DNA of 35,431 bases from a virus (Duplodnaviria; Heunggongvirae; Uroviricota; Caudoviricetes): the IMG/VR virus record IMGVR_UViG_3300018065_000012. One strand, 5' to 3'. The translations under genes were made by a program, and so were the position numbers. The notes beneath the pieces were generated by a model. That model did no database searches. It saw only the letters and a program-made list of their open reading frames with translations, and was not told the DNA's origin. Below, piece after piece: positions 2,525 to 29,069 of the stretch; the stretch's first letter is position 1; every line of letters begins with the position of its first letter.

Positions 2525-5500
2525 ATGCCTATCGCTGGAATCAAAGTCTTCTTTGTCGGCAAATCGTGGAACCTATCTTACGACATCAAGACCTCTAAGC
2601 ATATCGCAAATTTGATGTCTGATATTGCACAGTTCAAGCCTGATGTCATTGTCACATCCGAGTTTACTCCCGGTGCCTTAAATGTTGCTGATTTTGAAAT
2701 ACGGAAGCGGTGGATTGAAGTTCCTCCCAATTCAGATAATGCTTCTGTTGGAAGAGCAATCGAATCCTGCTATGCGTCGAACATTTGGGGAGAGCATAAA
2801 TTTAGCAAGCAGAATCCACTTGTTACGGTCTACACGGGAACATATAACACAGGTGACTTCCTACGGGACACTTTTCAATCATTACGGGAACAATCCTATA
2901 CGAATTGGGAATGGTCTGTTGTTGATGATGAAAGCACAGATGGCACTTGGGAACGGCTTATTGAAATAGCCAAAGAAGACCATCGAGTACATCCAGTAAG
3001 AATCAAGCATAGTGGCAAGATTGGAGCGGTGAAAGACGTTGCGACTCGTCTTGCAAATGGCGTCTATCTGATTGAACTTGACCATGATGATATGCTGACT
3101 GACAATTGTATTCAGGAAGTCAGGAAGGCATTTGAAGAAAACCCCGATGTTGGTTTTGTTTATTCCAATTGTGCGTCGTTCTTTCAGGATGGTTCGCCGC
3201 ATCAGTTCACAGATAATTTTTGGAAGCCGAGATACAGGGAAACAGAATACCGTGGAAAGAAGTATTTGGAGTGTAGGAATCCTGACATCTATGACCGCTT
3301 TGGAGAAAACTATCAACAGCAATTTGGCTGGTTCTTAACCGTGGGGCCGAACCATGTGAGGTCTTATCGAGCAAGTGTTTTGAAGGAGTTGGGCGGCTAC
3401 AATCAACACTTACCTGTAGCGGATGATTGGGATGTATATGCGAGATTCTTTTTGAATTCCAAATGCCTTCATCTTGACAAGATGCTTTATCTGTATCGCT
3501 TTTTGGATAGTTGGTCAAATACGACATTCACTCGCAACAAGTCGATTCAAGACCATTTGGCTTTGGGGCATCATAACTATCGGAAAGCGTTTATCGACTT
3601 CAACAACAAACGTTTACAATCTGAGGAACAGTCTGGTAATGAAACAGATTTCGTTACCAAAAAACGAGGTGTTTCCGCTGTGATTCTTGACTGGAATACA
3701 ATGGGAGAAACGTTGCTTTGTGTTGAATCCCTGAAAGCTTGCTATCCCGATGTTGAAGTTGTACTGGTTCAGAATGGCAAGCACTTTGATTGTCCGAAAG
3801 CTGACAAGGTGATTCAACTCGAAATGAATGTTGGTTTCTCGGCTGGTGTGAATCGTGGTGTAATGGAAACGAGTGGAGAATTGTTACTGCTTTTGAATAA
3901 TGATACTGTGGTTGAGAAAGGCTTGCTTGAGAAGCTTGAGAAAGAACTGGATAATCCTGATGTTGGTGTAGTTGGCCCTTACTCGAACGAAGCGAAGTAT
4001 CCACAAGGAAATTACGAATCTCATGCTGTTCCAAGTTTAACACAAGATTTGGATACGCTTTCTGGTTTCTGCATGTTAATGAGGAAAGACTTGTTTGAGT
4101 GTGTTGGTGGATTTGACCCACGCTTGACGACGTTTGAAGATGACGATTTTTGCCTTAAGGTGCGGCAACAGTTTAGGTTGAAATGCCGTGTGGTTGGTGG
4201 TACTTGGCTACATCATAGTGGGCATAGTTCATTTAAGACGAATGACCTTGACGTATTTGAAGTGATGAAAGAGAACAAGCAGAAGTACCGTGAAAAACGT
4301 CCTCATGTTCGAGTAATTGCTTTGACATATAATGAGAAGAGAGCGTTACCGGAATTCATTAACCAGTTGAGCAGCATTACAAATGACTTCTGCTTTCTTG
4401 ACAACGGCTCTACGGATGGAACAGTTGAATGGCTGAAGGAAAACGGAAGGAAAGTAGTAGTTCGAGAAGACGCAATTGAATCATATAGTCAACGACGAAA
4501 TATGGCGCTTGATATATTCCGTGACGATGCTGCTGAATGGATTGTGATGATTGACCCCGACGAACGTTTGGACAGCAACACAATCAATCATTTTGAGGAA
4601 TTGCTTCAGGCTCCGTATGACATCTATCTCTCTCCGTTGTGGTCAAAGAATTACGACAATACCCAAACAGAATGGGTAGCAAAGCCGTTCCTGTTCCGAA
4701 ACAAACCTGAGATACGTTGGGTGTTTCCTGTCCACGAGAAGCTGATTGGTTCTCATTCTCAGGCGTTAGTAGTCAACGCTCGGAATACGCACGTCTTGGA
4801 ATTACATTCGAAAGAGCGGCGTCAAGAGAATGCGAAAAAGTATGGCGACAAAGACGCACCATTGAATCATCCAGACGCACATGGTTTTCCCATTCTGAAT
4901 TACGAACATAGGGATGATGACAGAATCAAGAAGGTGTATTTGGGGCCACTCGTTTCGGTTGTAGTTCCGACGTATGACAGGAAGGAACTGCTTGCCAAGG
5001 CATTAGCATCTATTGAAAAACAGGATTATTTGGCAATTGATCCGGTAGTAGTTGGTGATAATTGTCCAACGCTTGAACCTTCTGAACGCCAATATAATTT
5101 GCCGATAAATCATGGCGCTGGCGGGGCTGTTCCAAGGAATTACGCAATCATGTTGGCGGCTGGTGATTGGATAGCTTACTTGGATGACGATAATGAATGG
5201 GAACCATACCATTTGTCGAGTCTGATGAGAATAGTTCAAGAAGCCAATGTTGGTTTTGCATTCTCGTCGATGTCGGTGAATGGTAAAGCGATGATTTTTG
5301 CAGAGCCGAAGTTTGGGAGGATTGATACATCATGTGTAGTACATCGAAAAAGCCTGATACGGGATTTCGGTTGGTGGAATGATAGAATCAAAGCTGGTTA
5401 CGCACATGATTGGGAATTTTTCAGTCGATGGGTTGTTGGTAAAGTTCCTTGGGCAGCGACAATGTTTCCTACAGTGATTTACAATGCAGAGACTTCAGGA

Positions 5501-5533
5501 CAAAAGGAATTTCTTGAGAGAATGACGCAATGA
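2525..5533 (+). CDS. Multidomain glycosyltransferase with four tandem GT2 (GT-A fold) domains.
   Basis: There are four repeats of the GT2 N-terminal signature with DxD-type motifs: VTVYTGTYNTGDFL...VVDDESTDGT...ELDHDD; VSAVILDWNT...LLNNDTVV; VRVIALTYNEKRAL...LDNGSTDGT...IDPDE; VSVVVPTYDRKELL...YLDDDNEW. Confidence 0.85.
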   Translation: MPIAGIKVFFVGKSWNLSYDIKTSKHIANLMSDIAQFKPDVIVTSEFTPGALNVADFEIRKRWIEVPPNSDNASVGRAIESCYASNIWGEHKFSKQNPLVTVYTGTYNTGDFLRDTFQSLREQSYTNWEWSVVDDESTDGTWERLIEIAKEDHRVHPVRIKHSGKIGAVKDVATRLANGVYLIELDHDDMLTDNCIQEVRKAFEENPDVGFVYSNCASFFQDGSPHQFTDNFWKPRYRETEYRGKKYLECRNPDIYDRFGENYQQQFGWFLTVGPNHVRSYRASVLKELGGYNQHLPVADDWDVYARFFLNSKCLHLDKMLYLYRFLDSWSNTTFTRNKSIQDHLALGHHNYRKAFIDFNNKRLQSEEQSGNETDFVTKKRGVSAVILDWNTMGETLLCVESLKACYPDVEVVLVQNGKHFDCPKADKVIQLEMNVGFSAGVNRGVMETSGELLLLLNNDTVVEKGLLEKLEKELDNPDVGVVGPYSNEAKYPQGNYESHAVPSLTQDLDTLSGFCMLMRKDLFECVGGFDPRLTTFEDDDFCLKVRQQFRLKCRVVGGTWLHHSGHSSFKTNDLDVFEVMKENKQKYREKRPHVRVIALTYNEKRALPEFINQLSSITNDFCFLDNGSTDGTVEWLKENGRKVVVREDAIESYSQRRNMALDIFRDDAAEWIVMIDPDERLDSNTINHFEELLQAPYDIYLSPLWSKNYDNTQTEWVAKPFLFRNKPEIRWVFPVHEKLIGSHSQALVVNARNTHVLELHSKERRQENAKKYGDKDAPLNHPDAHGFPILNYEHRDDDRIKKVYLGPLVSVVVPTYDRKELLAKALASIEKQDYLAIDPVVVGDNCPTLEPSERQYNLPINHGAGGAVPRNYAIMLAAGDWIAYLDDDNEWEPYHLSSLMRIVQEANVGFAFSSMSVNGKAMIFAEPKFGRIDTSCVVHRKSLIRDFGWWNDRIKAGYAHDWEFFSRWVVGKVPWAATMFPTVIYNAETSGQKEFLERMTQ

Positions 5534-6525
5534 GTAATGACTACGACGAATTCAACAGTTGGAAAGCACTTCTCTATGCTGATAAGTGTCGGGCGATTTT
5601 GGATGGTAATTTTCTTCCTCCCGTTATGATCCATGTTTATCCGACAAACAAGTGTAATGGCAGATGCAATTTTTGCATAATGAAAACAGAACAAGAATAC
5701 AAAACAGAGTTGGAGAAGTCTGTTTTTGAAAGGCTCGTCCAATCCGCAAATGATATGGGCGTAAAAGGTTTGCAAATAACGGGTGGCGGAGAACCACTTT
5801 TGTATTCGCACCTTCATCATATTCAAAAATTCAACGGGTTCAAATTGTTAGCAACCAATGGCAGTTTTCTTACGCCTGAGATCGCTTCGATGTTTGATAG
5901 GATACGTGTGAGTTTGAATGCGGGAAATGCGAAAACACATTCAGCAGTTATGGGGCTAAATAATTTCAGTGAAGTTATTGTCAACATGAGGCGTGTTAAA
6001 AAGCATTGTCCAAACGTTACGATGGGCATTGGGTTTGTTTTGAGTTTTGATAATTGGCATGAGGTTTTCGATGTTTGTGAAATTGCTGACAGTGTTGGCG
6101 CTGACTTTGTTCATATCAGACCGGCCTTTTTTGCGGATAAAAAGAGAGACAAAAAGGTAAGAGAAATAGTTGAGGCGGCTTATCACCTTTGCGAAGCGGC
6201 AAAGAAGCGGAACATCGTCAAGGTGTTCGCTATCTCAGAGAAGTTTGATGGCTATTGGACAGAACGCAAATACAAGAAGTGTTTGGCTTCCCCTTTGAAT
6301 GCGGTTGTAACGGCTACAGGAGAATTGGTGCCGTGCCTTGATGTTTTTATTCGATTTGGAGATTTGAATAAGAATACGTTTGAGGAAATTTGGGGAAGCG
6401 AAGAACACAAAAAAGCAATTGCAAAGATTGAGATTGAGAAATGCCCTCGTTGTGTGATGACTAAACCAAACGAAATTATAGAAAACGTTTTCATCAAGAA
6501 CAAAATCTTGGCGGAGCTGCTATGA
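5530..6525 (+). CDS. Radical SAM enzyme with a C-terminal Cys-rich (SPASM/twitch-like) region.
   Basis: CNGRCNFC (CxxxCxxC) lies near the N-terminus after YPTNKCN. A glycine-rich GGGEPLL SAM-binding motif is present. C-terminal cysteines include CLDV...EKCPRCVM. There is ATGA start-stop overlap with the GT gene. Confidence 0.8.
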   Translation: MSNDYDEFNSWKALLYADKCRAILDGNFLPPVMIHVYPTNKCNGRCNFCIMKTEQEYKTELEKSVFERLVQSANDMGVKGLQITGGGEPLLYSHLHHIQKFNGFKLLATNGSFLTPEIASMFDRIRVSLNAGNAKTHSAVMGLNNFSEVIVNMRRVKKHCPNVTMGIGFVLSFDNWHEVFDVCEIADSVGADFVHIRPAFFADKKRDKKVREIVEAAYHLCEAAKKRNIVKVFAISEKFDGYWTERKYKKCLASPLNAVVTATGELVPCLDVFIRFGDLNKNTFEEIWGSEEHKKAIAKIEIEKCPRCVMTKPNEIIENVFIKNKILAELL

Positions 6526-7415
6526 AAATTGGAGTGATGTTTTCAGGAGTTACAGGAAACAACGGTGCTGATTACGTTGCTGAATTTCTTGGCAATGCTG
6601 TGTTGCTTGAAGGGCATGAACTGACTTATATCGGTTCAATGGGTGGCGAACAAACGCAAGACGTTCCTTCTGGGCTGGATGTCGTGATCAATTCTTCCGG
6701 ATTTGGTTTGACTCCTGCGCTTGTTGAACGGTTTAAGAAACGATGCAAATTCTTTCTTTGGACGTTCAATGATGAAATTCATTTCTGGCAAAGTCGGATA
6801 GGTTCAATCACAGAATTGGTTGATAAGCATTTCTGTTATACAAAAACGCATTCCTATGGTCATCACGTTGAATATCTCCCGCTTGCAGCAGATCATTCAA
6901 TTTATTTTCCGATTGAAGGCTGTAAGAAACGTTATGACATTTCCATGATTGGGGCAGCACATCCTTGGAGAACTCAATTTGCTCAAGAGATTAGTCGTTT
7001 CTTTCCAAACTGTAAATTCAGTTTCAATATGAGTATGACTGACCGGCAAATAAATCTGCTTTACAATATGACGCGTGTAGTGATTGCGCCGATGCAAGAT
7101 GGCGATCAATACAACGAACAAGTAGTATTTGGATGTCCTTGTCGCACGTTTGATGTTCCTGCTGCAAGAGCGTTTCAATTACAAGCATACCGATCTGGTT
7201 TGCATGATGTTCACGACAGCGAAGAAATCATTGTGGGGACAACATTAAAGAGCACAAAGGATATTTTTGAAGTCATTTCAGAATGGATTGACAAAATTCG
7301 ATATTACTTAGATGAAGAAAAAACGCGGAAGAACTTGGCCGAAAGGATGTATGGCGAGATTACGCATAAACACCTCTATACCCATAGATTAAGTAGTATT
7401 TTGGAATTTGTGTGA
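6522..7415 (+). CDS. Putative GT-B-fold glycosyltransferase (CgeB-like or glycosyl transferase group 1-like).
   Basis: ATGA overlap with the rSAM gene. The C-terminal half resembles GT1/CgeB family (ISMIGAAHPWR...NLLYNMTRVVIAPMQ). No definitive motif is present. Confidence 0.45.
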   Translation: MKIGVMFSGVTGNNGADYVAEFLGNAVLLEGHELTYIGSMGGEQTQDVPSGLDVVINSSGFGLTPALVERFKKRCKFFLWTFNDEIHFWQSRIGSITELVDKHFCYTKTHSYGHHVEYLPLAADHSIYFPIEGCKKRYDISMIGAAHPWRTQFAQEISRFFPNCKFSFNMSMTDRQINLLYNMTRVVIAPMQDGDQYNEQVVFGCPCRTFDVPAARAFQLQAYRSGLHDVHDSEEIIVGTTLKSTKDIFEVISEWIDKIRYYLDEEKTRKNLAERMYGEITHKHLYTHRLSSILEFV

Positions 7416-7466
7416 GAATCATATTTTGATTTTTTTGAAATATTTTTGGAATTTTCCGTTCGCGAG

Positions 7467-7475
7467 TTGTATAAT
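7467..7475 (+). promoter_or_regulatory. Extended -10 promoter TTGTATAAT driving the tmRNA precursor.
   Basis: It is 20 nt upstream of the mature tmRNA 5' end GGGGGCG, consistent with a short 5' leader removed by RNase P. Confidence 0.5.
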
Positions 7476-7494: not shown

Positions 7495-7849
7495 GGGGGC
7501 GTCATGGTATCGACTGGCGCTGATTGTAGCACGGTTGCGTGCCGAGGTCGCCGGTTGGCCTCGTTAAAAAACCGGCAACGCCATTCACTTGGCAACAGCT
7601 ACAAAATGGCGGCGTGAGTCGCTCGTCAACTTGATCGACGCCGATGGGTCAATGTTTGACGTAAATGCTTTCGGTTGACAGCTGGCAAAGACCGCTGACG
7701 ACTCGCGGAAAGACGTGGGCCGCGTAAAGGGGTGGAATTGCCTTTTGAGGCTTGTCCAGTGGGCCAAGAATAAAAACCACGGAATACGCACGTAGAAGCC
7801 TGTTACAAAAGTGAACAGGACGCGGGTTCGATTCCCGCCGCCTCCACTA
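7495..7849 (+). ncRNA. ssrA: tmRNA (SsrA) with a tRNA-Ala-like domain and an internal tag reading frame.
   Basis: The 5' GGGGGCG pairs with the 3' CGCCUCC, giving a G3.U70 wobble, followed by discriminator A. The T-arm is GCGGG-UUCGAUU-CCCGC. The D-analogue GGUAUCGAC and the PK1 region GCGUGCCGAGG...GGUUGGCCUCGUUAAAAA align closely to E. coli SsrA. The tag ORF at 7591..7617 is GGC AAC AGC TAC AAA ATG GCG GCG TGA, giving (A)GNSYKMAA. Confidence 0.88.
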
Positions 7850-7886
7850 TTAAAAAGTTTCGGGGCAAGCTCAGTGCTTGTCCAAA

Positions 7887-7929
7887 GGAAGGGGAGCTTT
7901 CGGCCCCAAACTCCCCTTCCGGTTCTTTG
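7887..7929 (+). terminator. Rho-independent terminator downstream of the tmRNA.
   Basis: A perfect 10-bp inverted repeat GGAAGGGGAG...CTCCCCTTCC with a 14-nt loop, followed by GGTTCTTTG. Confidence 0.6.
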
Positions 7930-8199
7930 ACAAAAATTTCATGCACGCTTCAAGGCAGGGATACTTCAATAGCGATATATAAATTGGAGTGGAGAAATCC
8001 TGACAGCACCGGAAAGACGGGCAAAGGTGGTGACTTCCTTAAAGTCAATGGCAACCGTGAAAAGAGGCGGTGACAGGCGTGGATAGACACGCACGGTAGC
8101 TTACATAATAAAATGTAAATGCCGTAAAACAGACAAAATTTCCTTGCTTGACTTTTGGTGCATAAATTTTTGTCTTACGTCTATTGGGAGGACGGCAAT

Positions 8200-8406
8200 A
8201 TGTACAAGATTGAACTATTGCGATCCAAGAGCAAAAGAAAGAATGAAAATTTCTATTGGCGCTTGATTTCAAGAGCGAATGGAAATATTCTTTCGACTGC
8301 GGAACCTTATGCGCGTCGTCCTTGGACAGTGATCAAGAATCTTGCCGGTGCCTTCAAAAGAGGCAAATGCATTATTGTTGACCTGTCCCAAAAGAAGAAG
8401 AAATAA
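8200..8406 (+). CDS. DUF1508 / YegP-like small protein.
   Basis: A GGGAGG RBS precedes the ATG. The sequence FYWRLISRANGNILSTAEPYARRPWTVIKNLAGAF matches the YegP/DUF1508 repeat pattern (FRLKA.NGEII..SEGY). Confidence 0.6.
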   Translation: MYKIELLRSKSKRKNENFYWRLISRANGNILSTAEPYARRPWTVIKNLAGAFKRGKCIIVDLSQKKKK

Positions 8407-8783
8407 GGTTTCCCTTGTTGGCCGAGGGCCGATGGTTCCTCATCGTCCTCTCCTCACTCTACGGGTGGAGCTGTTTGCATTTGGTTGGCAAGGGAAAAGT
8501 TTTCTAACCGGCATTATCAGTATCATGGCGCTGCCGGTTATATTTGTTCTTTGAAAAAATTCCAACACGCTTCAGTTGAGAGATACTTCTACTATCGGTT
8601 CTAAGGTAGCTTAGGTCAAACCCTGTTTCGGCAGGGAGACACAGTGAGGACAAAACTGGTAACAGTGAGTCCGCGTCAAAGGCAAAGCTTATGAAACTCA
8701 TACGCGTCGTGGCGGTGGGTGAGGCTTGTACTGGCAACCACACACGAAAATACTTTCAACGTTTTTTGGTGTTGGTGCTTTTT

Positions 8784-8848
8784 CCGGGTGTGCTTTGGGT
8801 ATCCCAAACTTGATCTCCGCGAACAAGTGCCTACGCACCCGGTTTTTT
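8784..8848 (+). terminator. Stem-loop plus U-tract (CCGGGTGTG...CGCACCCGG TTTTTT), possibly the 3' end of an ncRNA or an attenuator.
   Basis: A 9-bp stem with one G.U pair and a ~41-nt loop, followed by six T residues, lying immediately before the RBS of the 8866 gene. Confidence 0.4.
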
Positions 8849-8865
8849 AATGGTAAGGAGACATT

Positions 8866-9639
8866 ATGAAAAATGTGATTGAGAAATTTGCGCGAATGGG
8901 TGCACGGCTCAAAATCAACCAAACAGATCGTCCCGTACGCTTTCGCGCCAACAACGAGTTCCGCATTGACGTTTTGCGCGATAAGAATGGCGAATTTTTC
9001 GACATTCAAACGCAAGACATCGACATGAAAGTGCTTGATGTACAATCCGCAGATCGCCATTTGCTTTTGCGCGTTGGCGATGAAAACTTTCTCTGTGGTC
9101 ACGATGAACGTCAATGGTTTGTCGCTGGCGTGAAAACAAATGCGCCCACAGTCAAGAGAGCAAAGGAAGCGCTGAAACCACTTGGAGTGCGCTCTTCCGA
9201 ACGCAAGAATCGCGTCAAAGGAAAAAACAGAATCAAGCGGCATAACAAAGGTTCTATCCGACAAGGAGAATGGTTCTTTGTCCCTGAGCCAGATGCCAGA
9301 TTTAATGCGAATTTGATTCTCAGAAAAGAACCTTTGATGCGTGGCAACCGTGGCGGTGGAAAACCCCATATTGCGGAGGAACTTGTTCGCATGGGTGGAA
9401 CGACAGTTTATGTTAATCCCCGCCATCGCAACGGTCTGATGGAAAAGGAATACAAAAAACTTTTGGCAGAAACGCCTTCTGCGAAAAGGTGGCGCTGGCA
9501 AGTGATGAAGCGCGACCCAAGGGTTTACGTTCGCGGTAAAATTCGCCATCCCGATCACAAGACAGTAAAGCTTCAAGGATGGTATCGGGTTGAAGTCAAT
9601 GACGAAATTTTCAGCGAGCGAGTAGCTTTTCTTGATTAA
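8866..9639 (+). CDS. Hypothetical basic protein (257 aa).
   Basis: A strong AAGGAGA RBS precedes a long clean ORF. I recognise no motif. Confidence 0.6.
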   Translation: MKNVIEKFARMGARLKINQTDRPVRFRANNEFRIDVLRDKNGEFFDIQTQDIDMKVLDVQSADRHLLLRVGDENFLCGHDERQWFVAGVKTNAPTVKRAKEALKPLGVRSSERKNRVKGKNRIKRHNKGSIRQGEWFFVPEPDARFNANLILRKEPLMRGNRGGGKPHIAEELVRMGGTTVYVNPRHRNGLMEKEYKKLLAETPSAKRWRWQVMKRDPRVYVRGKIRHPDHKTVKLQGWYRVEVNDEIFSERVAFLD

Positions 9640-9717: not shown

Positions 9718-10764
9718 ATGAGCCATTTTACTGTTCTGGTTCGGTTTTCCGATGCGTTCAAAAATTCTCATGGTGGCGTCCAGCAAGCTATAAACGAAAT
9801 GCTTGCGCCCTATCAAGAAAACAATATGGAAGACTGTCCAAAGGAGTTTCTTGAATTTAATGATGTTGAAAAGGAGTATCGGAAAAAGTACAAGGAAGAA
9901 TCACAGGAATTAGTCCGAATGCCAGATGGTAAATTGATTTCAAAATATAACGACCGATTCAAAAAGCTCAAAGATGGAAGCAAGTATTCATATGATCGCA
10001 TTATTCCTGATGATTGCGAGTTAGTTAACGTGCCTCACAACCAACATTACGCGACGTTTGAAAAATTCATGGAAGATTACGGTGATTATGAAAAAGACGA
10101 AAGTACGGGGAAATACGGCTATTGGGAAAATCCAAATGCCAAATGGGACTGGTTTCAAATTGGTGGCCGTTGGCAAGGTTGTTTGCACGTTAAGAAAGGG
10201 GCGCGAAGCGCAAAGAACGGCGAACCAAGTCTTTTAATGAAGGACCATAAATTTGAAGACGACAAAGTGGATGCTGCTCAAAAATGCGACATCGACTTTG
10301 AAGGTTGGAAAGCTGATACAGACAAACAACTTGAGGAATGGTGGAAGAAATATCAACAACTTTTGAAAGGGACGTTAAAAGAAGACGACAACCCTTTTTA
10401 CGGGATGCATTACGACCTTTGCCAAATGGGGTTGAGAGAAACGCCTGCGGTCAACGACAAAGAAATTGAAGCCGCAAGAAAAAAGTCCCCAAAGGATCGT
10501 TCAAAATGGCCTGAAGCAGTTTGGATGACAAAAGAGATTACAAAAGCCGAACTTGAAATAAACTACCGCTGGCGGTTTGAGTTCAACACTTATGCCGCCT
10601 GTACTGAAAAAGAGGGATGGCTTGAAAAAGGAAAAATGGGCTGGTTTGGTTGTAGCACTGATAAAAGCGAAGACAGGGAGAAATGGGGCAAAAGCTTTTT
10701 CAACCGTTTCTTCTTGAACGCACCGGAGGATGAATGGTTTGCAGTCGTTGACTGCCACATTTGA
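9718..10764 (+). CDS. Hypothetical acidic, Trp-rich protein (348 aa).
   Basis: A GGAGG RBS precedes the ATG and a promoter lies directly upstream. The YGYWENPNAKWDWFQIGGRWQG segment is distinctive but unrecognised. Confidence 0.6.
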   Translation: MSHFTVLVRFSDAFKNSHGGVQQAINEMLAPYQENNMEDCPKEFLEFNDVEKEYRKKYKEESQELVRMPDGKLISKYNDRFKKLKDGSKYSYDRIIPDDCELVNVPHNQHYATFEKFMEDYGDYEKDESTGKYGYWENPNAKWDWFQIGGRWQGCLHVKKGARSAKNGEPSLLMKDHKFEDDKVDAAQKCDIDFEGWKADTDKQLEEWWKKYQQLLKGTLKEDDNPFYGMHYDLCQMGLRETPAVNDKEIEAARKKSPKDRSKWPEAVWMTKEITKAELEINYRWRFEFNTYAACTEKEGWLEKGKMGWFGCSTDKSEDREKWGKSFFNRFFLNAPEDEWFAVVDCHI

Positions 10765-10828
10765 CCTTTCTTAAATTTTGGTTCCGCTTTGTGTGAGAGC
10801 GGTTCGCTTCTGTAGAAAGGAGAGTATT

Positions 10829-12658
10829 ATGGGTAGAATGAAAAAGTTGGCGAAGAACAAGGCGAAGACGGCACGGCTTCCGTCGGAACAGACAAACGCA
10901 ACGGTAAACCGCGCAGGCGGTGTTTCGTTTGATATTACCGTTCCGGCTATCAAGCTGATGACCATGACGGGTGGAAGCTTTTTCATGGAACCGCGTTATT
11001 ACGATGCGGACAAGTGCGTGCCAAAGCGCGAAGCTGGCGGAAAGCTTGGCAAGCTTCAAGAGCGTTTGAAACTGGCAAAGAACAAGTCGTTGGAAGGCAG
11101 TAAGGCGTTGAAAGAATCCAACGTCAATGAGTTGGATGAATTGTCCCGTGAGGTCATGGCAACTGCTTGGGATGTTCTGAACAGCGATAATCCGAGCGAC
11201 TTGCTGAAGATTGCCCACTGGCTGCGGCGTGAAATGAACATCAGAATGACGCCGCAAGTGCTGTTGGTGCTTGCGTCACAACATCCAAACGGAAAGCCTT
11301 TTGTACGCGAGTACACGCCGAAGATAATTGCGCGTCCGGATGAGATCAAGACGGTCATCCTGATGCACAGGTTTTTCTTTGGCATGAAGAACTTGAAGAA
11401 CTGCTTGCGTTACGGTCTGTCTGATGCTATGGCAAAGATGGGCGAGCGCGGCCTGATCAAGTATGAAGGCAAGGATTTTCCAAGCTGGAAGGACGTCCTT
11501 TTCATGGTTGCTCACGCGAAGGATTATCCGCTGAGCAAGCCAGTTGCGGAATACTTCATGTTTGGCAAGGTCAGTGATGAAGCTCCGATTGCTTCCGCAA
11601 GAAAGCAGTTGGCTGGTTGCAAGAAGCTTGGCACAAAGGCGAAGAATCTGATTTCTACGTCTTTTGCAAACTGGGAAGTCGTTTTGTCTCAGTTTGGTCA
11701 GACTGCGGAAAGCAAGAAGGAAGTTTGGGAATATCTTATCAAGGAAAATTTGGTCGGCTACATGGCCATGATGAGAAACCTGCGGAACGTCCTTCAGGCA
11801 GGAGTTGGCGGCGATACGGTCAAGCGTATCCACGACAAGCTGTCTGATCCAGAGCAGGTAAAGCGTTCCAGACAACTTCCTTTCCGTTTTGCGATGGCCG
11901 CAAAGGTGCTTGGTGCTGACTATGGTATCACTGATCGTTGGTACTATGATCGGGACGTAAGCAATCAAAAGTTTGAGTGCAATGAAAAGCACCGCAGTAT
12001 TATTCAGGATGCTTTGGAAAACGCTGCGGACGAAGCGGTGATCAATGTGCCTGAACTTCCGGGCGTGACTGCTGTGTTTGCAGATAACAGCGGTTCAATG
12101 TCGCAGATGGTCAGCGAAAAGAGCAAGGTGTCGTGCGCTTTGGCTGCAAATATGCTTGGTGGTATCGTGGCGAAGCGTTCAGCAAATGCTCGCGTCTGTG
12201 CCTTTGGTACGGATGTAAAAGAAGTCAACTACACGAAGCGGACGCGTGTGCTGGAGTTTGTCGGTAAGCTTGCAAAGGCCGAAACAAATGGCTGCTCCAC
12301 TAACACGCATCGTTGCGCTCAGTGGTTGATGAAGAACGGCATTGCCGCTGACCGTGTGATCATCCTCAGCGACATGCAGTGCTGGGATTCCCGTTCGGCA
12401 GGTAGCAGACGGGGGTTGTGGGGTTATAGTGATCAAAGTTTTGCTGATGAATGGTTCAAGTACAAGAAGTCAAACAAGGACACTTGGCTTCACTGCGTCA
12501 ACTTGAATGGATATGGAGATAGCATGGTTGACGACAAGTCCGACAAAGTGAACCTTGTTGGCGCGTTCAGCGAAAAGATTATCAGCATGCTTCTGGTCAC
12601 TGAAGGCGTAATGACGGACGCAGTTCCAACTCTTGAACAACTTAGAGAGAAGTGGTAA
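10829..12658 (+). CDS. rsr: Ro60/Rsr-like ribonucleoprotein with a TROVE domain and a C-terminal vWA domain.
   Basis: The N-terminal TNATVNRAGGVSFDI...TGGSFFMEPRYY follows the Ro60 TROVE pattern (compare human NSQDGYVWQV...FGSEGGTYYI). The C-terminal vWA has a MIDAS motif VFADNSGSMS with downstream T/D residues (GCSTN, ILSDMQ). An AGGAGAG RBS is present. Confidence 0.62.
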   Translation: MGRMKKLAKNKAKTARLPSEQTNATVNRAGGVSFDITVPAIKLMTMTGGSFFMEPRYYDADKCVPKREAGGKLGKLQERLKLAKNKSLEGSKALKESNVNELDELSREVMATAWDVLNSDNPSDLLKIAHWLRREMNIRMTPQVLLVLASQHPNGKPFVREYTPKIIARPDEIKTVILMHRFFFGMKNLKNCLRYGLSDAMAKMGERGLIKYEGKDFPSWKDVLFMVAHAKDYPLSKPVAEYFMFGKVSDEAPIASARKQLAGCKKLGTKAKNLISTSFANWEVVLSQFGQTAESKKEVWEYLIKENLVGYMAMMRNLRNVLQAGVGGDTVKRIHDKLSDPEQVKRSRQLPFRFAMAAKVLGADYGITDRWYYDRDVSNQKFECNEKHRSIIQDALENAADEAVINVPELPGVTAVFADNSGSMSQMVSEKSKVSCALAANMLGGIVAKRSANARVCAFGTDVKEVNYTKRTRVLEFVGKLAKAETNGCSTNTHRCAQWLMKNGIAADRVIILSDMQCWDSRSAGSRRGLWGYSDQSFADEWFKYKKSNKDTWLHCVNLNGYGDSMVDDKSDKVNLVGAFSEKIISMLLVTEGVMTDAVPTLEQLREKW

Positions 12659-12687
12659 ACAAAATTGTAAATCTCTTTCTGGTTTTT

Positions 12688-12722
12688 GCCCCTGTTGCCG
12701 GTGGTAGCAGGGGTATTTTCTT
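12688..12722 (+). terminator. Rho-independent terminator after rsr.
   Basis: GCCCCTG, a 13-nt loop, CAGGGGT, then ATTTTCTTT. Confidence 0.6.
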
Positions 12723-12739
12723 TAGACAGGGAGCGTGCA

Positions 12740-27446: not shown

Positions 27447-27919
27447 GTCCAACAACAGGTGAAGCCTATTACAGCGGCACTTGGGAAGACGTGCGCAATC
27501 TTTGTAAGGTTTTGAAGATTGGCAGTGGGCGGCTCGCATTGATAGACCAAAAGCTTGTTGAGTTTTATCAGGAACAGGTTGATCGTGAAATCGATGGAGA
27601 ACTTGAACAATATTATTATGTCCCATTACGTTCGTACAATATGTATCGCCCGGTTGATTCAACGACAATTTCCGTATTTCCGGGAGCGATACGTTCATTA
27701 GCTCGGCATTGGGCTGCTGGCGCTCTATTGATGAGCGAGTTTCAAGACCTTGATCCAAACGCAAATGAAGGTGCCACGACTTATATTACGGAGAGCAAAC
27801 AAAAGCTTTATGATTTTATGCGCTTTCAAAAACGTATTCCCGGACAAACTTGGAAACACAATTTGCGAACGATGCCTCCAACAATGGCACCGGGGTTCAA
27901 CCCAGAACCGGAATGGTAA
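27434..27919 (+). CDS. Hypothetical protein (161 aa).
   Basis: A GAGAGAAA RBS is present, and the gene overlaps the end of the upstream gene. Confidence 0.45.
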   Translation: MPDVSPTTGEAYYSGTWEDVRNLCKVLKIGSGRLALIDQKLVEFYQEQVDREIDGELEQYYYVPLRSYNMYRPVDSTTISVFPGAIRSLARHWAAGALLMSEFQDLDPNANEGATTYITESKQKLYDFMRFQKRIPGQTWKHNLRTMPPTMAPGFNPEPEW

Positions 27920-27920
27920 T

Positions 27921-29069
27921 ATGAGACGTTGTGCTCAAAAGGAAGAATTGTCGCCAGCTGAAAAAGCAAAGCGCGTGAAAAAGCGCACTGATGGCGTAAA
28001 GAATATTGCTGATAATTTGCAGAGTTTACGACGTAAATTGAATCAAGAATTGAACTCTGGTGATGAGAAAGAACGTTTGGTCGCTCTTGTTATTAGCGTA
28101 ATGGACAAAACCGCTGAACGCGTAGGAAATGAAGAGTCAGCGGAAAACAATCACCTTGGCGTTACAGGATTCAAGAAAAAGAATATTTCCGTGGAAGGCA
28201 ATACAGTAAAGCTTTCCTATACGGGAAAATCCGGCGTCAAGCATGAAAAGGATTTCACGGACAAAAAACTTGCACCGATGATTTCTGATTTGTTGAAACA
28301 GACAAAAGGCGAAGACAGTTTTGTGTTCGAAACGCCTGATGGATTCAAAATTAAATCGGATCAGGTTACGCGATTTCTGAAGCCATTTGACATTAAGCCA
28401 AAAGATATTCGCGGCTATGCAGCAAACCGATACATGATTCGCTCTTTGAAGCGTCGTGGAATTGAACCTGATGAGAAGGAACGCAAAAAACGGTTTTTGG
28501 AAACGCTCAAAGATGTTGCTGAGCGGGTTGGTCACACGCCATCAATGCTCCGGAATTCCTATTTGCTTCCCGATCTGGAAGACAAATATATCAAGCACGG
28601 AAAGGTGGTTGAATTGGATCGCAAGGCAAGTATTGATGAAAAAGCTATTATTGCCCGTTTGATGGCTCCACCGGGAATAGGAATGAACCAAAATGAGTTG
28701 GGTGGCGAAGCTCGTCCTAAAGATCATGTCGTGGATAACACTGTTGAAGTTCGTATCATAACGTTTGATGAATTACGGGATATGATGGATAGGTTGACAA
28801 AATCAGCTTGCTTATATTATGCTGGAATAGAAGACGTCTTGAAAAAATACTCGCAGAAAAATAAGGCTTGGTATTATGATAAGAAGAGTCAAACTTTCAC
28901 TGCGGATGCTTCTGATTTAGGCCGTGGAACTTGGAAAGACCCTTGGAATCGTTCGATCAGAGACAGTTGGATTAGCCCAATTCGAGACAGAGAGGGCGAC
29001 ATCCAGAAATGGACAGGGCATACAACGGTCAAGGGTGAAAAGATAAATCTAACGATTTTCAATGACTGA
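27921..29069 (+). CDS. Type IB DNA topoisomerase (poxvirus/bacterial TopIB family).
   Basis: The N-domain reads DKTAERVGNEESAENNHLGVTGFKKKNI...YTGKSGVKHEKDF. The C-domain RVGHTPSMLRNSYLLP contains the catalytic-Tyr motif (compare TPAV.RKSYIHP). Confidence 0.62.
   Translation: MRRCAQKEELSPAEKAKRVKKRTDGVKNIADNLQSLRRKLNQELNSGDEKERLVALVISVMDKTAERVGNEESAENNHLGVTGFKKKNISVEGNTVKLSYTGKSGVKHEKDFTDKKLAPMISDLLKQTKGEDSFVFETPDGFKIKSDQVTRFLKPFDIKPKDIRGYAANRYMIRSLKRRGIEPDEKERKKRFLETLKDVAERVGHTPSMLRNSYLLPDLEDKYIKHGKVVELDRKASIDEKAIIARLMAPPGIGMNQNELGGEARPKDHVVDNTVEVRIITFDELRDMMDRLTKSACLYYAGIEDVLKKYSQKNKAWYYDKKSQTFTADASDLGRGTWKDPWNRSIRDSWISPIRDREGDIQKWTGHTTVKGEKINLTIFND

Follow-up and report, generated by a model that had tools for sequence, protein, structure and literature searches.

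Does a phage that carries a gene for the RNA-binding protein Ro60 also carry the small RNAs with which Ro60 would work, and to what end might the two be kept together? The question is raised by a 35,431-nucleotide stretch of viral DNA (Caudoviricetes; IMG/VR record IMGVR_UViG_3300018065_000012), referred to here in its entirety as the window, in which a preliminary description had placed a Ro60/Rsr-type protein with TROVE and vWA domains at 10829-12658, in a phage context and about 3 kb from a transfer-messenger RNA (tmRNA), and had expected a partner RNA close by. Particles of Ro60 and Y RNA are conserved from bacteria to humans, human Ro60 being a major lupus and Sjogren autoantigen, and the Ro60 ring binds Y RNA on its outer surface and misfolded RNA ends in its central cavity; the Xenopus Ro-Y RNA structure (1YVP) and the Deinococcus Rsr-Yrn1-PNPase complex are what we take to be the basis of this biology. 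To our knowledge, the role of the variable part of Y RNAs is understood in very few cases. In this work, we find that the protein is a Ro60/Rsr ortholog and that two Y-RNA-like genes, evidently homologous to Y RNAs in their core, lie between it and the tmRNA, an arrangement which would constitute a phage-borne Ro60 ribonucleoprotein module. The features that carry this finding are the following.

10829..12658, + strand: Ro60/Rsr ortholog coding sequence, 609 residues plus stop, with a TROVE HEAT-repeat ring at the N terminus and, at the C terminus, a vWA domain that bears the MIDAS (metal ion-dependent adhesion site) motif
7939..8167, + strand: Y-RNA-like gene 1, matched at full length by covariance model R2 (see below) with 48.8 bits, E 1e-10
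8561..8778, + strand: Y-RNA-like gene 2, matched at full length by model R2 with 51.3 bits, E 2e-11
7495..7849, + strand: tmRNA, matched over the full-length model Rfam RF00023 with 125 bits against a gathering score of 47

Several methods agree on what the protein is. The open reading frame (ORF), listed mechanically as 10778..12658(+), yields 609 residues from the ATG at 10829, which follows an AAGGAG Shine-Dalgarno sequence (10817-10822) located 6 nt upstream, and the same start was picked by gene callers on six public contigs, of up to 338,319 bp, whose product (P0001) is 100% identical. Both Pfam domains score above their cutoffs (TROVE, PF05731, E 3.6e-24, 86 bits against 23; vWA_Ro60, PF25045, E 3e-9, 37.5 bits against 27.7), PHROG 850 ('RNA-binding protein') matches the ORF at 1e-43, and a profile of the family returned Ro60 proteins only when compared with all PDB sequences, the best of them from Thermus phage phiLo (E 2e-24). 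The motifs from which the protein had originally been recognized are present and fall on invariant columns in an alignment of 38 homologs, which has 70 such columns: VNRAGGVSFDI occupies residues 26-36 and GGSFFMEPRYY residues 48-58 of the TROVE region (invariant N27, R28, A29, G30, G31, F51, E54, P55 and Y58), and DNSGSMS, at 419-425, forms part of a full and invariant MIDAS set (D419/S421/S423/T491/D515; DxSxS...T...D). An AlphaFold2 model (predicted local distance difference test 84, predicted TM-score 0.85; low confidence at residues 61-73, 91-93, 368-379 and 523-534) had as its 13 best Foldseek matches in the PDB the Ro60s of Xenopus, human, Deinococcus and phiLo, in full-length alignments with target-normalised TM-scores of 0.66-0.77, and generic vWA domains ranked after these with E-values some ten orders of magnitude weaker. 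Judging from these fold matches, the HEAT repeats of the protein are predicted to form an alpha-solenoid ring that the vWA domain closes. Given the TROVE profile match and the Ro60 fold, neither of the two outcomes that the preliminary description had named as fatal to its assignment, namely the lack of a TROVE match by profile methods or of the Ro60 solenoid ring in a predicted structure, was encountered. The ORF product is a Ro60/Rsr ortholog, composed of a HEAT-repeat ring and a vWA/MIDAS domain.

Full-length homologs of this Ro60 with 43-68% identity are encoded, in conserved synteny, on dozens of distinct large viral contigs (from IMG/VR, up to 250 kb long; from metagenomes, up to 345 kb), and among 185,579 cellular species, represented by one genome each, the clade had a single match, on a 2.9-kb scaffold of a metagenome-assembled genome. 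The closest cellular Rsr among those tested is 30% identical to the window protein. Ro-like genes were found by tblastn in 128 deposited phage genomes, each less than 30% identical to the window Ro60 and many of them annotated 'Ro-like RNA binding protein', so that a phage Ro60 is a known kind of gene, and the protein described here is a new, divergent member of that kind; TROVE proteins of jumbo phages had already been noted (PMC7824862). The phage context is likewise upheld, by a tail tube gene, by ORFs that are mostly unannotated and all on one strand, by the 338-kb contig of a giant uncultivated phage to which the window belongs and by the viral relatives in IMG/VR.

The expectation of a partner RNA was borne out by the two Y-RNA-like genes, which lie 2.0-2.9 kb upstream of the Ro60 ATG on the same strand, in a region of about 1 kb between the tmRNA and the ORF at 8866 without a convincing long ORF. 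Each is built on a core that opens with the first strand of an outer stem of 5-7 bp, runs through C(N)CUUCA and the first strand of an 8-bp inner stem to (G)AUACUUC or (G)UUACUUC, and, past a variable insert, supplies the second strand of the inner stem, a GAUUAUUGG-like sequence and the second strand of the outer stem. The DNA pattern CTTCA-N7-GATACTTC is repeated exactly at 7948 and 8570, two occurrences in the window where none is expected by chance, and recurs, invariably on the TROVE (+) strand, in 15 different related loci. We considered this pattern as a phage promoter and rejected the idea, since covariation shows its flanks to be two helices and the partner motif on the 3' side is itself conserved.

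A first covariance model, R1, was built from 14 minimal copies of the core taken from related loci (designated below by L numbers). Close loci gave 48 matches with it, and loci with TROVE proteins of only 27-35% identity another 16; every match is on the TROVE strand, and the majority lie upstream of the TROVE gene at a distance of no more than 0.5 kb. R1 was unable to span inserts of 160-170 nt, and its score in the window was only 11.6 bits; the model was therefore rebuilt to allow longer inserts, from the 48 close-locus matches and with no window sequence included. When the 35-kb window was searched with the resulting model, R2, and all filters off, exactly two significant matches were returned, the two genes listed above, and the next best reached 11.9 bits. 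In the 14 minimal copies 94.8% of the cells are paired (37-47% in slid controls), with compensatory changes in 12 of 15 pairs, and in 75 matches including those of the window 93.5% are paired (60% when shuffled, about 40% when slid), percentages which are inflated somewhat because the instances were in part selected for complementarity (the first ones) or fitted to the model (the 75). Across the 75 matches, compensatory changes are seen in 15/15 core pairs and the covariation score is 0.94 against 0.27.

The core is closely tied to TROVE genes. All 111 matches in TROVE-bearing loci are on the TROVE strand; the figure is 80/80 for close loci and 16/16 for distant loci. A check independent of TROVE, in which a loose sequence pattern was run over the whole of IMG/VR, yielded 101 loci, of which 80 were searched with R2; the 7 loci with R2-validated copies were exactly the 7 that have a TROVE gene (tblastn, 101 loci), again on the same strand. 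One and the same core carries inner modules of at least six kinds, often several of them per genome.

In Y-like RNA 1 the core is made up of an outer stem UGCAC/GUGCA, an internal loop of CUUCA opposite GACUUUUGG, an 8-bp inner stem and GAUACUUC; in Y-like RNA 2, of an outer stem CCAACA/UGUUGG, a loop of CUUCA opposite GUUUUUUGG, an inner stem GUUGAGAG/CUUUCAAC and, once more, GAUACUUC. Unconstrained minimum free energy folding recovers both stems in each RNA (z = -4.9 for the first). Both RNAs have a stem formed by their 5' and 3' ends and broken by a conserved loop, as is expected of Y RNAs of the YrlA type, in which such a loop or bulge bears the Ro60 site. The inserts are unlike one another. 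That of the second RNA (about 160 nt) is otherwise found only in L094 and L095, nhmmer aligning the module with L094 1044-1164 at E 1.5e-7, and that of the first (about 170 nt, class C) contains a series of tandem hairpins, the loops of which are GAAAGA, GAAAAGAG and GAUAGA.

Class C modules recur in several loci (window 8000-8100; L021 5590-5700; L028 915-1000; L094 5010-5090; L099 5580-5660; L007 4180-4290) as a row of three to five short hairpins. The stems of these covary, GAAAGA, GGAAGA or CAAAGA forms the loop, closed by G-C, and the spacers between them are often UGG or UGAC. The modules look like a putative multivalent array for protein binding; a CsrA-like reading of the GRAAGA hairpins was considered, and nothing was found in its favour.

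The relation of the core to the YrlA class of bacterial Y RNAs is provided by sister copies. Some of these enclose a T arm, a closed acceptor-like stem and a D arm, and the Rfam YrlA model (RF02553) aligns with them over its full length, below its gathering score (L011, 40.5 bits; L100, 34.8 and 29 bits). Such tRNA-like domains lie at L011 1372-1511, at L100 3880-4020 and 5103-5242 and at 6935-7077 in the cultured Arthrobacter phage Atuin, in which four R2 matches, one of them overlapping a YrlA match, are found around the annotated Ro-like gene. On the chromosome of the planctomycete Fuerstiella marisgermanici four R2 matches flank a TROVE gene of 634 residues, and two of them, with tRNA-like domains at 5817-5957 and 5967-6103, have canonical T and D arms. 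In the Rfam alignment the inner stem and AUACUU of the core correspond to YrlA 'ggCgaAUGCuu', that is, to GNCGAAN0-1G, which is the bacterial Rsr site of YrlA (Chen et al. 2014, PMC4201824). GAUACUUC thereby stands where YrlA has its GNCGAA(N)G Rsr site, and at the Ro60-contact position the core reads GRG-AUACUUC or GGG-UUACUUC, a kinship of position and not of sequence. Given the YrlA alignments and the evidence from Atuin and Fuerstiella, we regard the core as a lineage variant of the Ro60-binding stem of YrlA, and, as read from sequence and predicted pairing, the two window RNAs are evidently homologous to Y RNAs in their core.

A phage Ro60 with Y-like RNAs upstream is already on record (PMC4201824, PMC12135203): Y RNAs within 4 kb of Ro60 and on the same strand have been reported from 254 bacteria and 22 phages (PMC4201824), and the Ro60 of Thermus phage phiLo binds two upstream Yrl RNAs and the host PNPase (PMC12135203). 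The phiLo system (phiRo60/Yrl1/Yrl2; PDB 9KOP, 9L5Y) shares with the window a phage Ro60 of ring and vWA domain and two upstream Y-RNA-like genes, and phiRo60 is both the best PDB sequence-profile match to the window protein and among its top fold matches. However, phiRo60 has about 500 residues as compared with 609, the phiLo Yrl RNAs were chosen by a CGAA motif in a bulge whereas the window core has GAUACUUC and a second conserved internal loop, the window RNAs, unlike those of phiLo, carry large modules that are not tRNA-like, and no tmRNA is reported for the phiLo locus. In the rsr-yrlBA-rtcBA locus of Salmonella (RF02553; PMC4201824, PMC7790460) the RNAs are likewise within 4 kb of Ro60 and on the same strand, and a terminal stem with the protein-binding site encloses a modular second domain in YrlA and YrlB, the latter being a precedent for a Y RNA without a tRNA-like domain. 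The connection with RNA repair is made in Salmonella by the rtcBA genes and in the window, which has no Rtc genes, by way of the family of a 257-residue protein described below; furthermore, the window RNAs have GWUACUUC where YrlA has GNCGAAN0-1G, together with an extra outer stem and the CUUCA / GAUUAUUGG internal loop. The Rsr-Yrn1-PNPase complex of Deinococcus radiodurans (RYPER; PDB 2NVO) provides a Ro60 fold match and a model for the tethering of an exoribonuclease through a Y RNA module, yet the window RNAs have no sequence similarity to Yrn1, and neither a PNPase gene nor a PNPase-binding module was identified. Among large cultured phages, Bacillus phage G has a TROVE protein (gp540) with a tmRNA (gp553) and a tRNA-Met about 3 kb from it, all within 5 kb, and Atuin has its Ro-like gp111 surrounded by four GWUACUUC core copies, the Y-like RNAs being unannotated in the database records; the Ro-like genes of these two phages, with 25-27% protein identity, stand amid full tRNA arrays, in contrast to the window, which is without tRNA.

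The tmRNA fits its definition in having a tRNA-like domain with a G3:U70 pair (acceptor stem GGGGGCG/CGCCUCC in the Rfam alignment), a pseudoknot-rich body and a tag reading frame with stop (GNSYKMAA*, 7591-7617). It terminates in ...CUCCACUA, CCA not being encoded, and 2,979 nt separate its 3' end from the Ro60 ATG downstream, in agreement with the distance of about 3 kb originally given. It was seen by Rfam only, ARAGORN making no tmRNA call on the window; the latter program likewise fails on the Rfam-called tmRNAs of L094, L096 and L100. Relatives have a same-strand tmRNA in 16 of the 24 distinct loci searched, and the common order in relatives is tmRNA, long Y-like RNA, minimal Y-like RNA, tRNA-Met(CAT) and TROVE, the tRNA-Met(CAT) lying directly upstream of TROVE in 16 of 30 loci; the label tRNA(CAT) covers initiator tRNA-Met, elongator tRNA-Met and tRNA-Ile2 alike. 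In a number of relatives the minimal Y-like copies stop 5-15 nt before a tRNA (L090 5769-5837, tRNA from 5843; L099 5703-5768, tRNA from 5775; L094 5140-5211, tRNA from 5217), and in Atuin (L268) 1-3 nt before it (4329-4400, tRNA-Trp from 4402; 6631-6705, tRNA-Thr from 6707). As the minimal copies abut a tRNA in this manner, the 3' end of the Y RNA may be set by RNase P cleavage of a Y-tRNA precursor, which the spacing suggests for these relatives; the window has no such tRNA.

Some further observations concern the same clusters. Two tRNA(CAT) genes are present in those of L090 (4700-4776 and 5843-5917), L094 (3261-3337 and 5217-5293) and L027 (317-393 and 1647-1723), and the tRNA(CAT) of L097, inspected by eye, has a U1:U72 mismatch. 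Upstream of the tmRNA/Ro60 cluster, at a distance of a few kb, L097 (2182-2270) and L094 (3439-3515) have a Twister-P5 ribozyme match above the Rfam gathering score.

The remaining elements in and around the cluster of the window are these.

7446..7475, + strand: sigma-70-like promoter TTGGAA-18-TATAAT, from a consensus scan only (10/12 positions), 20 nt upstream of the tmRNA
8200..8406, + strand: ORF of 68 residues between the Y-like RNAs, called as a gene on public contigs
8784..8848, + strand: terminator-like element, a 9-bp G+C-rich stem CCGGGUGUG / CGCACCCGG with a branched loop, then UUUUUU
8866..9639, + strand: protein of 257 residues with unknown fold, of a large, mainly planctomycete family (ORF257)
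9718..10764: generic phage protein (phrog_10079) between the RNAs and Ro60
12687..12725, + strand: intrinsic-terminator-like hairpin from a terminator scan, 13 pairs and a U-rich tail, 29 nt past the Ro60 stop

The terminator-like stem just before the ORF at 8866 was read from the sequence and is present in the minimum free energy fold of 8400-8866; a simple terminator scan misses it because its loop exceeds 8 nt. The promoter may drive the entire RNA gene cluster, and together with the hairpin and U-run at 8784-8848 it suggests a single transcript of the RNA cluster that is later processed. The 68-residue ORF has conserved counterparts in L009 and L010, the closest relatives (tblastn with L010, 41% identity, E 8e-8), and matches Pfam DUF1508 (YegP-like) below the cutoff, at E 0.004. 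The protein encoded at 8866-9639 is 50-55% identical to planctomycete proteins, and its homologs in bacteria adjoin genes for TROVE, RtcB/RtcR or Tpt1; it is a probable accessory of an RNA-repair or quality-control module, and the invariant motifs CGHDER and HPDH of the family suggest a metal site. The product of the ORF at 9718-10764 is not consistently linked to TROVE and was set aside as a generic phage protein. A hairpin at 7868-7935 that by eye resembles the stem of human Y RNA (UUGUCCAAAGG / CUUUGACAA) was dropped as well, being neither conserved nor supported by a model; the segment forms two simple hairpins after the tmRNA.

Taken together, it is reasonable to postulate that the locus is a phage-borne Ro60 ribonucleoprotein module working as follows, a reading to which we would assign a probability of roughly 0.7. 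The tmRNA, Y-like RNA 1, the small ORF and Y-like RNA 2 would be transcribed from the promoter at 7446-7475 to the terminator-like element at 8784-8848 and then processed into separate RNAs. Ro60 would bind the core of each Y-like RNA, by way of the inner stem, GAUACUUC and the CUUCA / GAYUWUUGG internal loop, and the variable module, by analogy with the Y RNA and PNPase of Deinococcus and phiLo, may tether or gate Ro60 toward a different partner in each case. The resulting particle would act, during infection, on RNAs that are structured, misfolded or damaged. To judge from the neighbours, which are the tmRNA, the tRNA-Met(CAT) of relatives and the ORF family with its links to RtcB and Tpt1, these may be RNAs of the translation apparatus, and the setting may be RNA damage induced by the host or by stress, along with ribosome stalling. 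The name 'RNA-quality-control island' that had been proposed for the locus could be apt, and the ORF257 family adds support for it. What goes beyond identity and association, namely binding, expression and processing, we infer from the sequence. Since Fuerstiella has the ORF257 family, the Y RNA core and rsr side by side, the module was probably acquired from Planctomycetota-like hosts.

Several observations weigh against this reading, in addition to the selection that inflates the pairing percentages given above. The Rfam search of the flanks for Y RNA and YrlA that had been suggested at the outset found neither in the window, at the gathering threshold or at E<=10, including a search confined to the 1 kb at 7850-8870, in which the two RNAs matched no Rfam family of any kind, and a custom model was needed; the YrlA gathering score of 69 bits is not reached by the sister copies either (28-40 bits). 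Both window RNAs are without T and D arms and without a literal GNCGAAN0-1G (bacterial) or GGUCCGA (metazoan) contact motif, and by current definitions they are not YrlA. The tRNA-Met of the relatives is missing here, ARAGORN finding no tRNA at all in the window. Furthermore, the promoter and the terminator are calls at the level of a consensus, as is the single transcript between them, and the RNAs are set apart from Ro60 by the terminator-like element and two ORFs.

The postulated mechanism may be extended further, in a manner that we put forward tentatively and consider rather doubtful as a whole. The core would be a universal handle and the interchangeable modules (a minimal loop, a tRNA-like domain, tandem hairpins with GRAAGA loops and at least three larger domains) a phage adaptor set which steers one Ro60 ring to varied host or phage targets, a viral system that with the tmRNA and the ORF257 protein reprograms RNA repair, decay and ribosome rescue in Planctomycetota-like hosts. 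Both window adaptors would then have lost the tRNA-like domain, and one of them, through its hairpin array, would recruit or sequester a multimeric RNA-binding protein.

Of the other explanations, the one that survives best is counter-defence, in which Ro60/Y particles capture or retarget a host factor (e.g. PNPase, or a protein that binds GRAAGA hairpins) and so disable immunity or remodel RNA decay. The ternary complex of phiLo Ro60, Yrl RNAs and host PNPase is read by its authors as hijacking (PMC12135203), the occurrence of several module classes on one core, often within one genome, fits adaptors for different host targets, and the near absence of the Ro60 clade from the 185,579 cellular species surveyed suggests a virus-specific adaptation. 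However, neither PADLOC nor Pfam detects an anti-defence signature, PADLOC having no match for Ro60 or its neighbours, and the recurring company of tmRNA, tRNA-Met and the RtcB/Tpt1-linked family points to the repair or rescue of translation RNAs and away from inhibition of a defence system. We therefore think counter-defence unlikely as the principal function; it and quality control are not mutually exclusive.

That the core is a cis-acting structure for the processing or regulation of tRNA/tmRNA clusters (a platform for RNase P or RNase E, or a leader), and not a ligand of Ro60, we judge improbable. It would account for the minimal copies that stop 1-15 nt short of a tRNA 5' end (in L090, L093, L094, L099, L027 and Atuin), for the many copies that lie, leader-like, directly upstream of a TROVE start codon and for the location of the Ro-like genes of cultured phages inside tRNA arrays. 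Yet in IMG/VR validated copies occur only where TROVE is present, whereas tRNA clusters abound in phages that lack Ro60; the core also encloses tRNA-like modules of the YrlA type, with which the Rfam YrlA model aligns at full length; and it flanks rsr in the cellular genome of Fuerstiella, where there is no tRNA cluster. As the window copies adjoin neither a tRNA nor the Ro60 start, trans-acting RNAs are favoured. Last, it is scarcely credible that Ro60 is a recently captured host passenger gene with no role in infection and with unrelated structured RNAs nearby, for although the ORF at 8866-9639 is clearly host-like (50-55% identity to planctomycete proteins) and the gene order of Fuerstiella is comparable, full-length homologs are retained in synteny on dozens of distinct viral contigs, 70 columns including the MIDAS residues are invariant, a strong Shine-Dalgarno sequence precedes the gene and the closest cellular Rsr tested is so distant.

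By itself the protein is ordinary, Ro-like genes being annotated in more than 100 phage genomes. What the locus adds lies in the RNAs. In the searchable literature, which does not extend to the supplementary tables of Chen et al. 2014 with their 355 YrlA candidates, we found no extended core with a second conserved loop, no common handle for six or more classes of module, no ORF257 family, neither of the two window modules, which are invisible to Rfam and not tRNA-like, and no conserved order of tmRNA, Y RNA, tRNA-Met and Ro60 in a large clade of uncultivated phages. The family amounts to a natural experiment, in which a single covarying core of the Ro60 type is combined with at least six kinds of module in large uncultivated phages, a cultured actinophage and a planctomycete chromosome, and it yields concrete candidates for new tethering partners of Ro60. 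It also indicates that the Rfam models of today miss a large share of Y RNAs, and in tying a phage Ro60 to tmRNA, tRNA-Met and a family that neighbours RtcB and Tpt1 it directs attention to the management of damaged translation RNAs by viruses.

Elsewhere in the window, all long ORFs are on the + strand and most are without a family match, and no gene for RtcB, RtcA or RtcR is present. Those that could be annotated encode a tail tube protein, an LD-carboxypeptidase, a 1065-residue protein with LamG repeats, a protein with triple GT2, a radical SAM/SPASM enzyme, a protein resembling nucleoside deoxyribosyltransferases and a GIY-YIG protein. The region directly upstream of the tmRNA (2525-7415) encodes a 1002-residue protein with 3-4 GT2 domains, the radical SAM/SPASM enzyme, which has weak pVip-like matches in PADLOC, and a GT1-like protein, and may be a cassette for the modification of glycans or nucleotides. 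At 27750-29069 the window encodes, in this phage context, the catalytic core of a type IB (eukaryotic-type) DNA topoisomerase (Pfam Topoisom_I, 1.4e-22).

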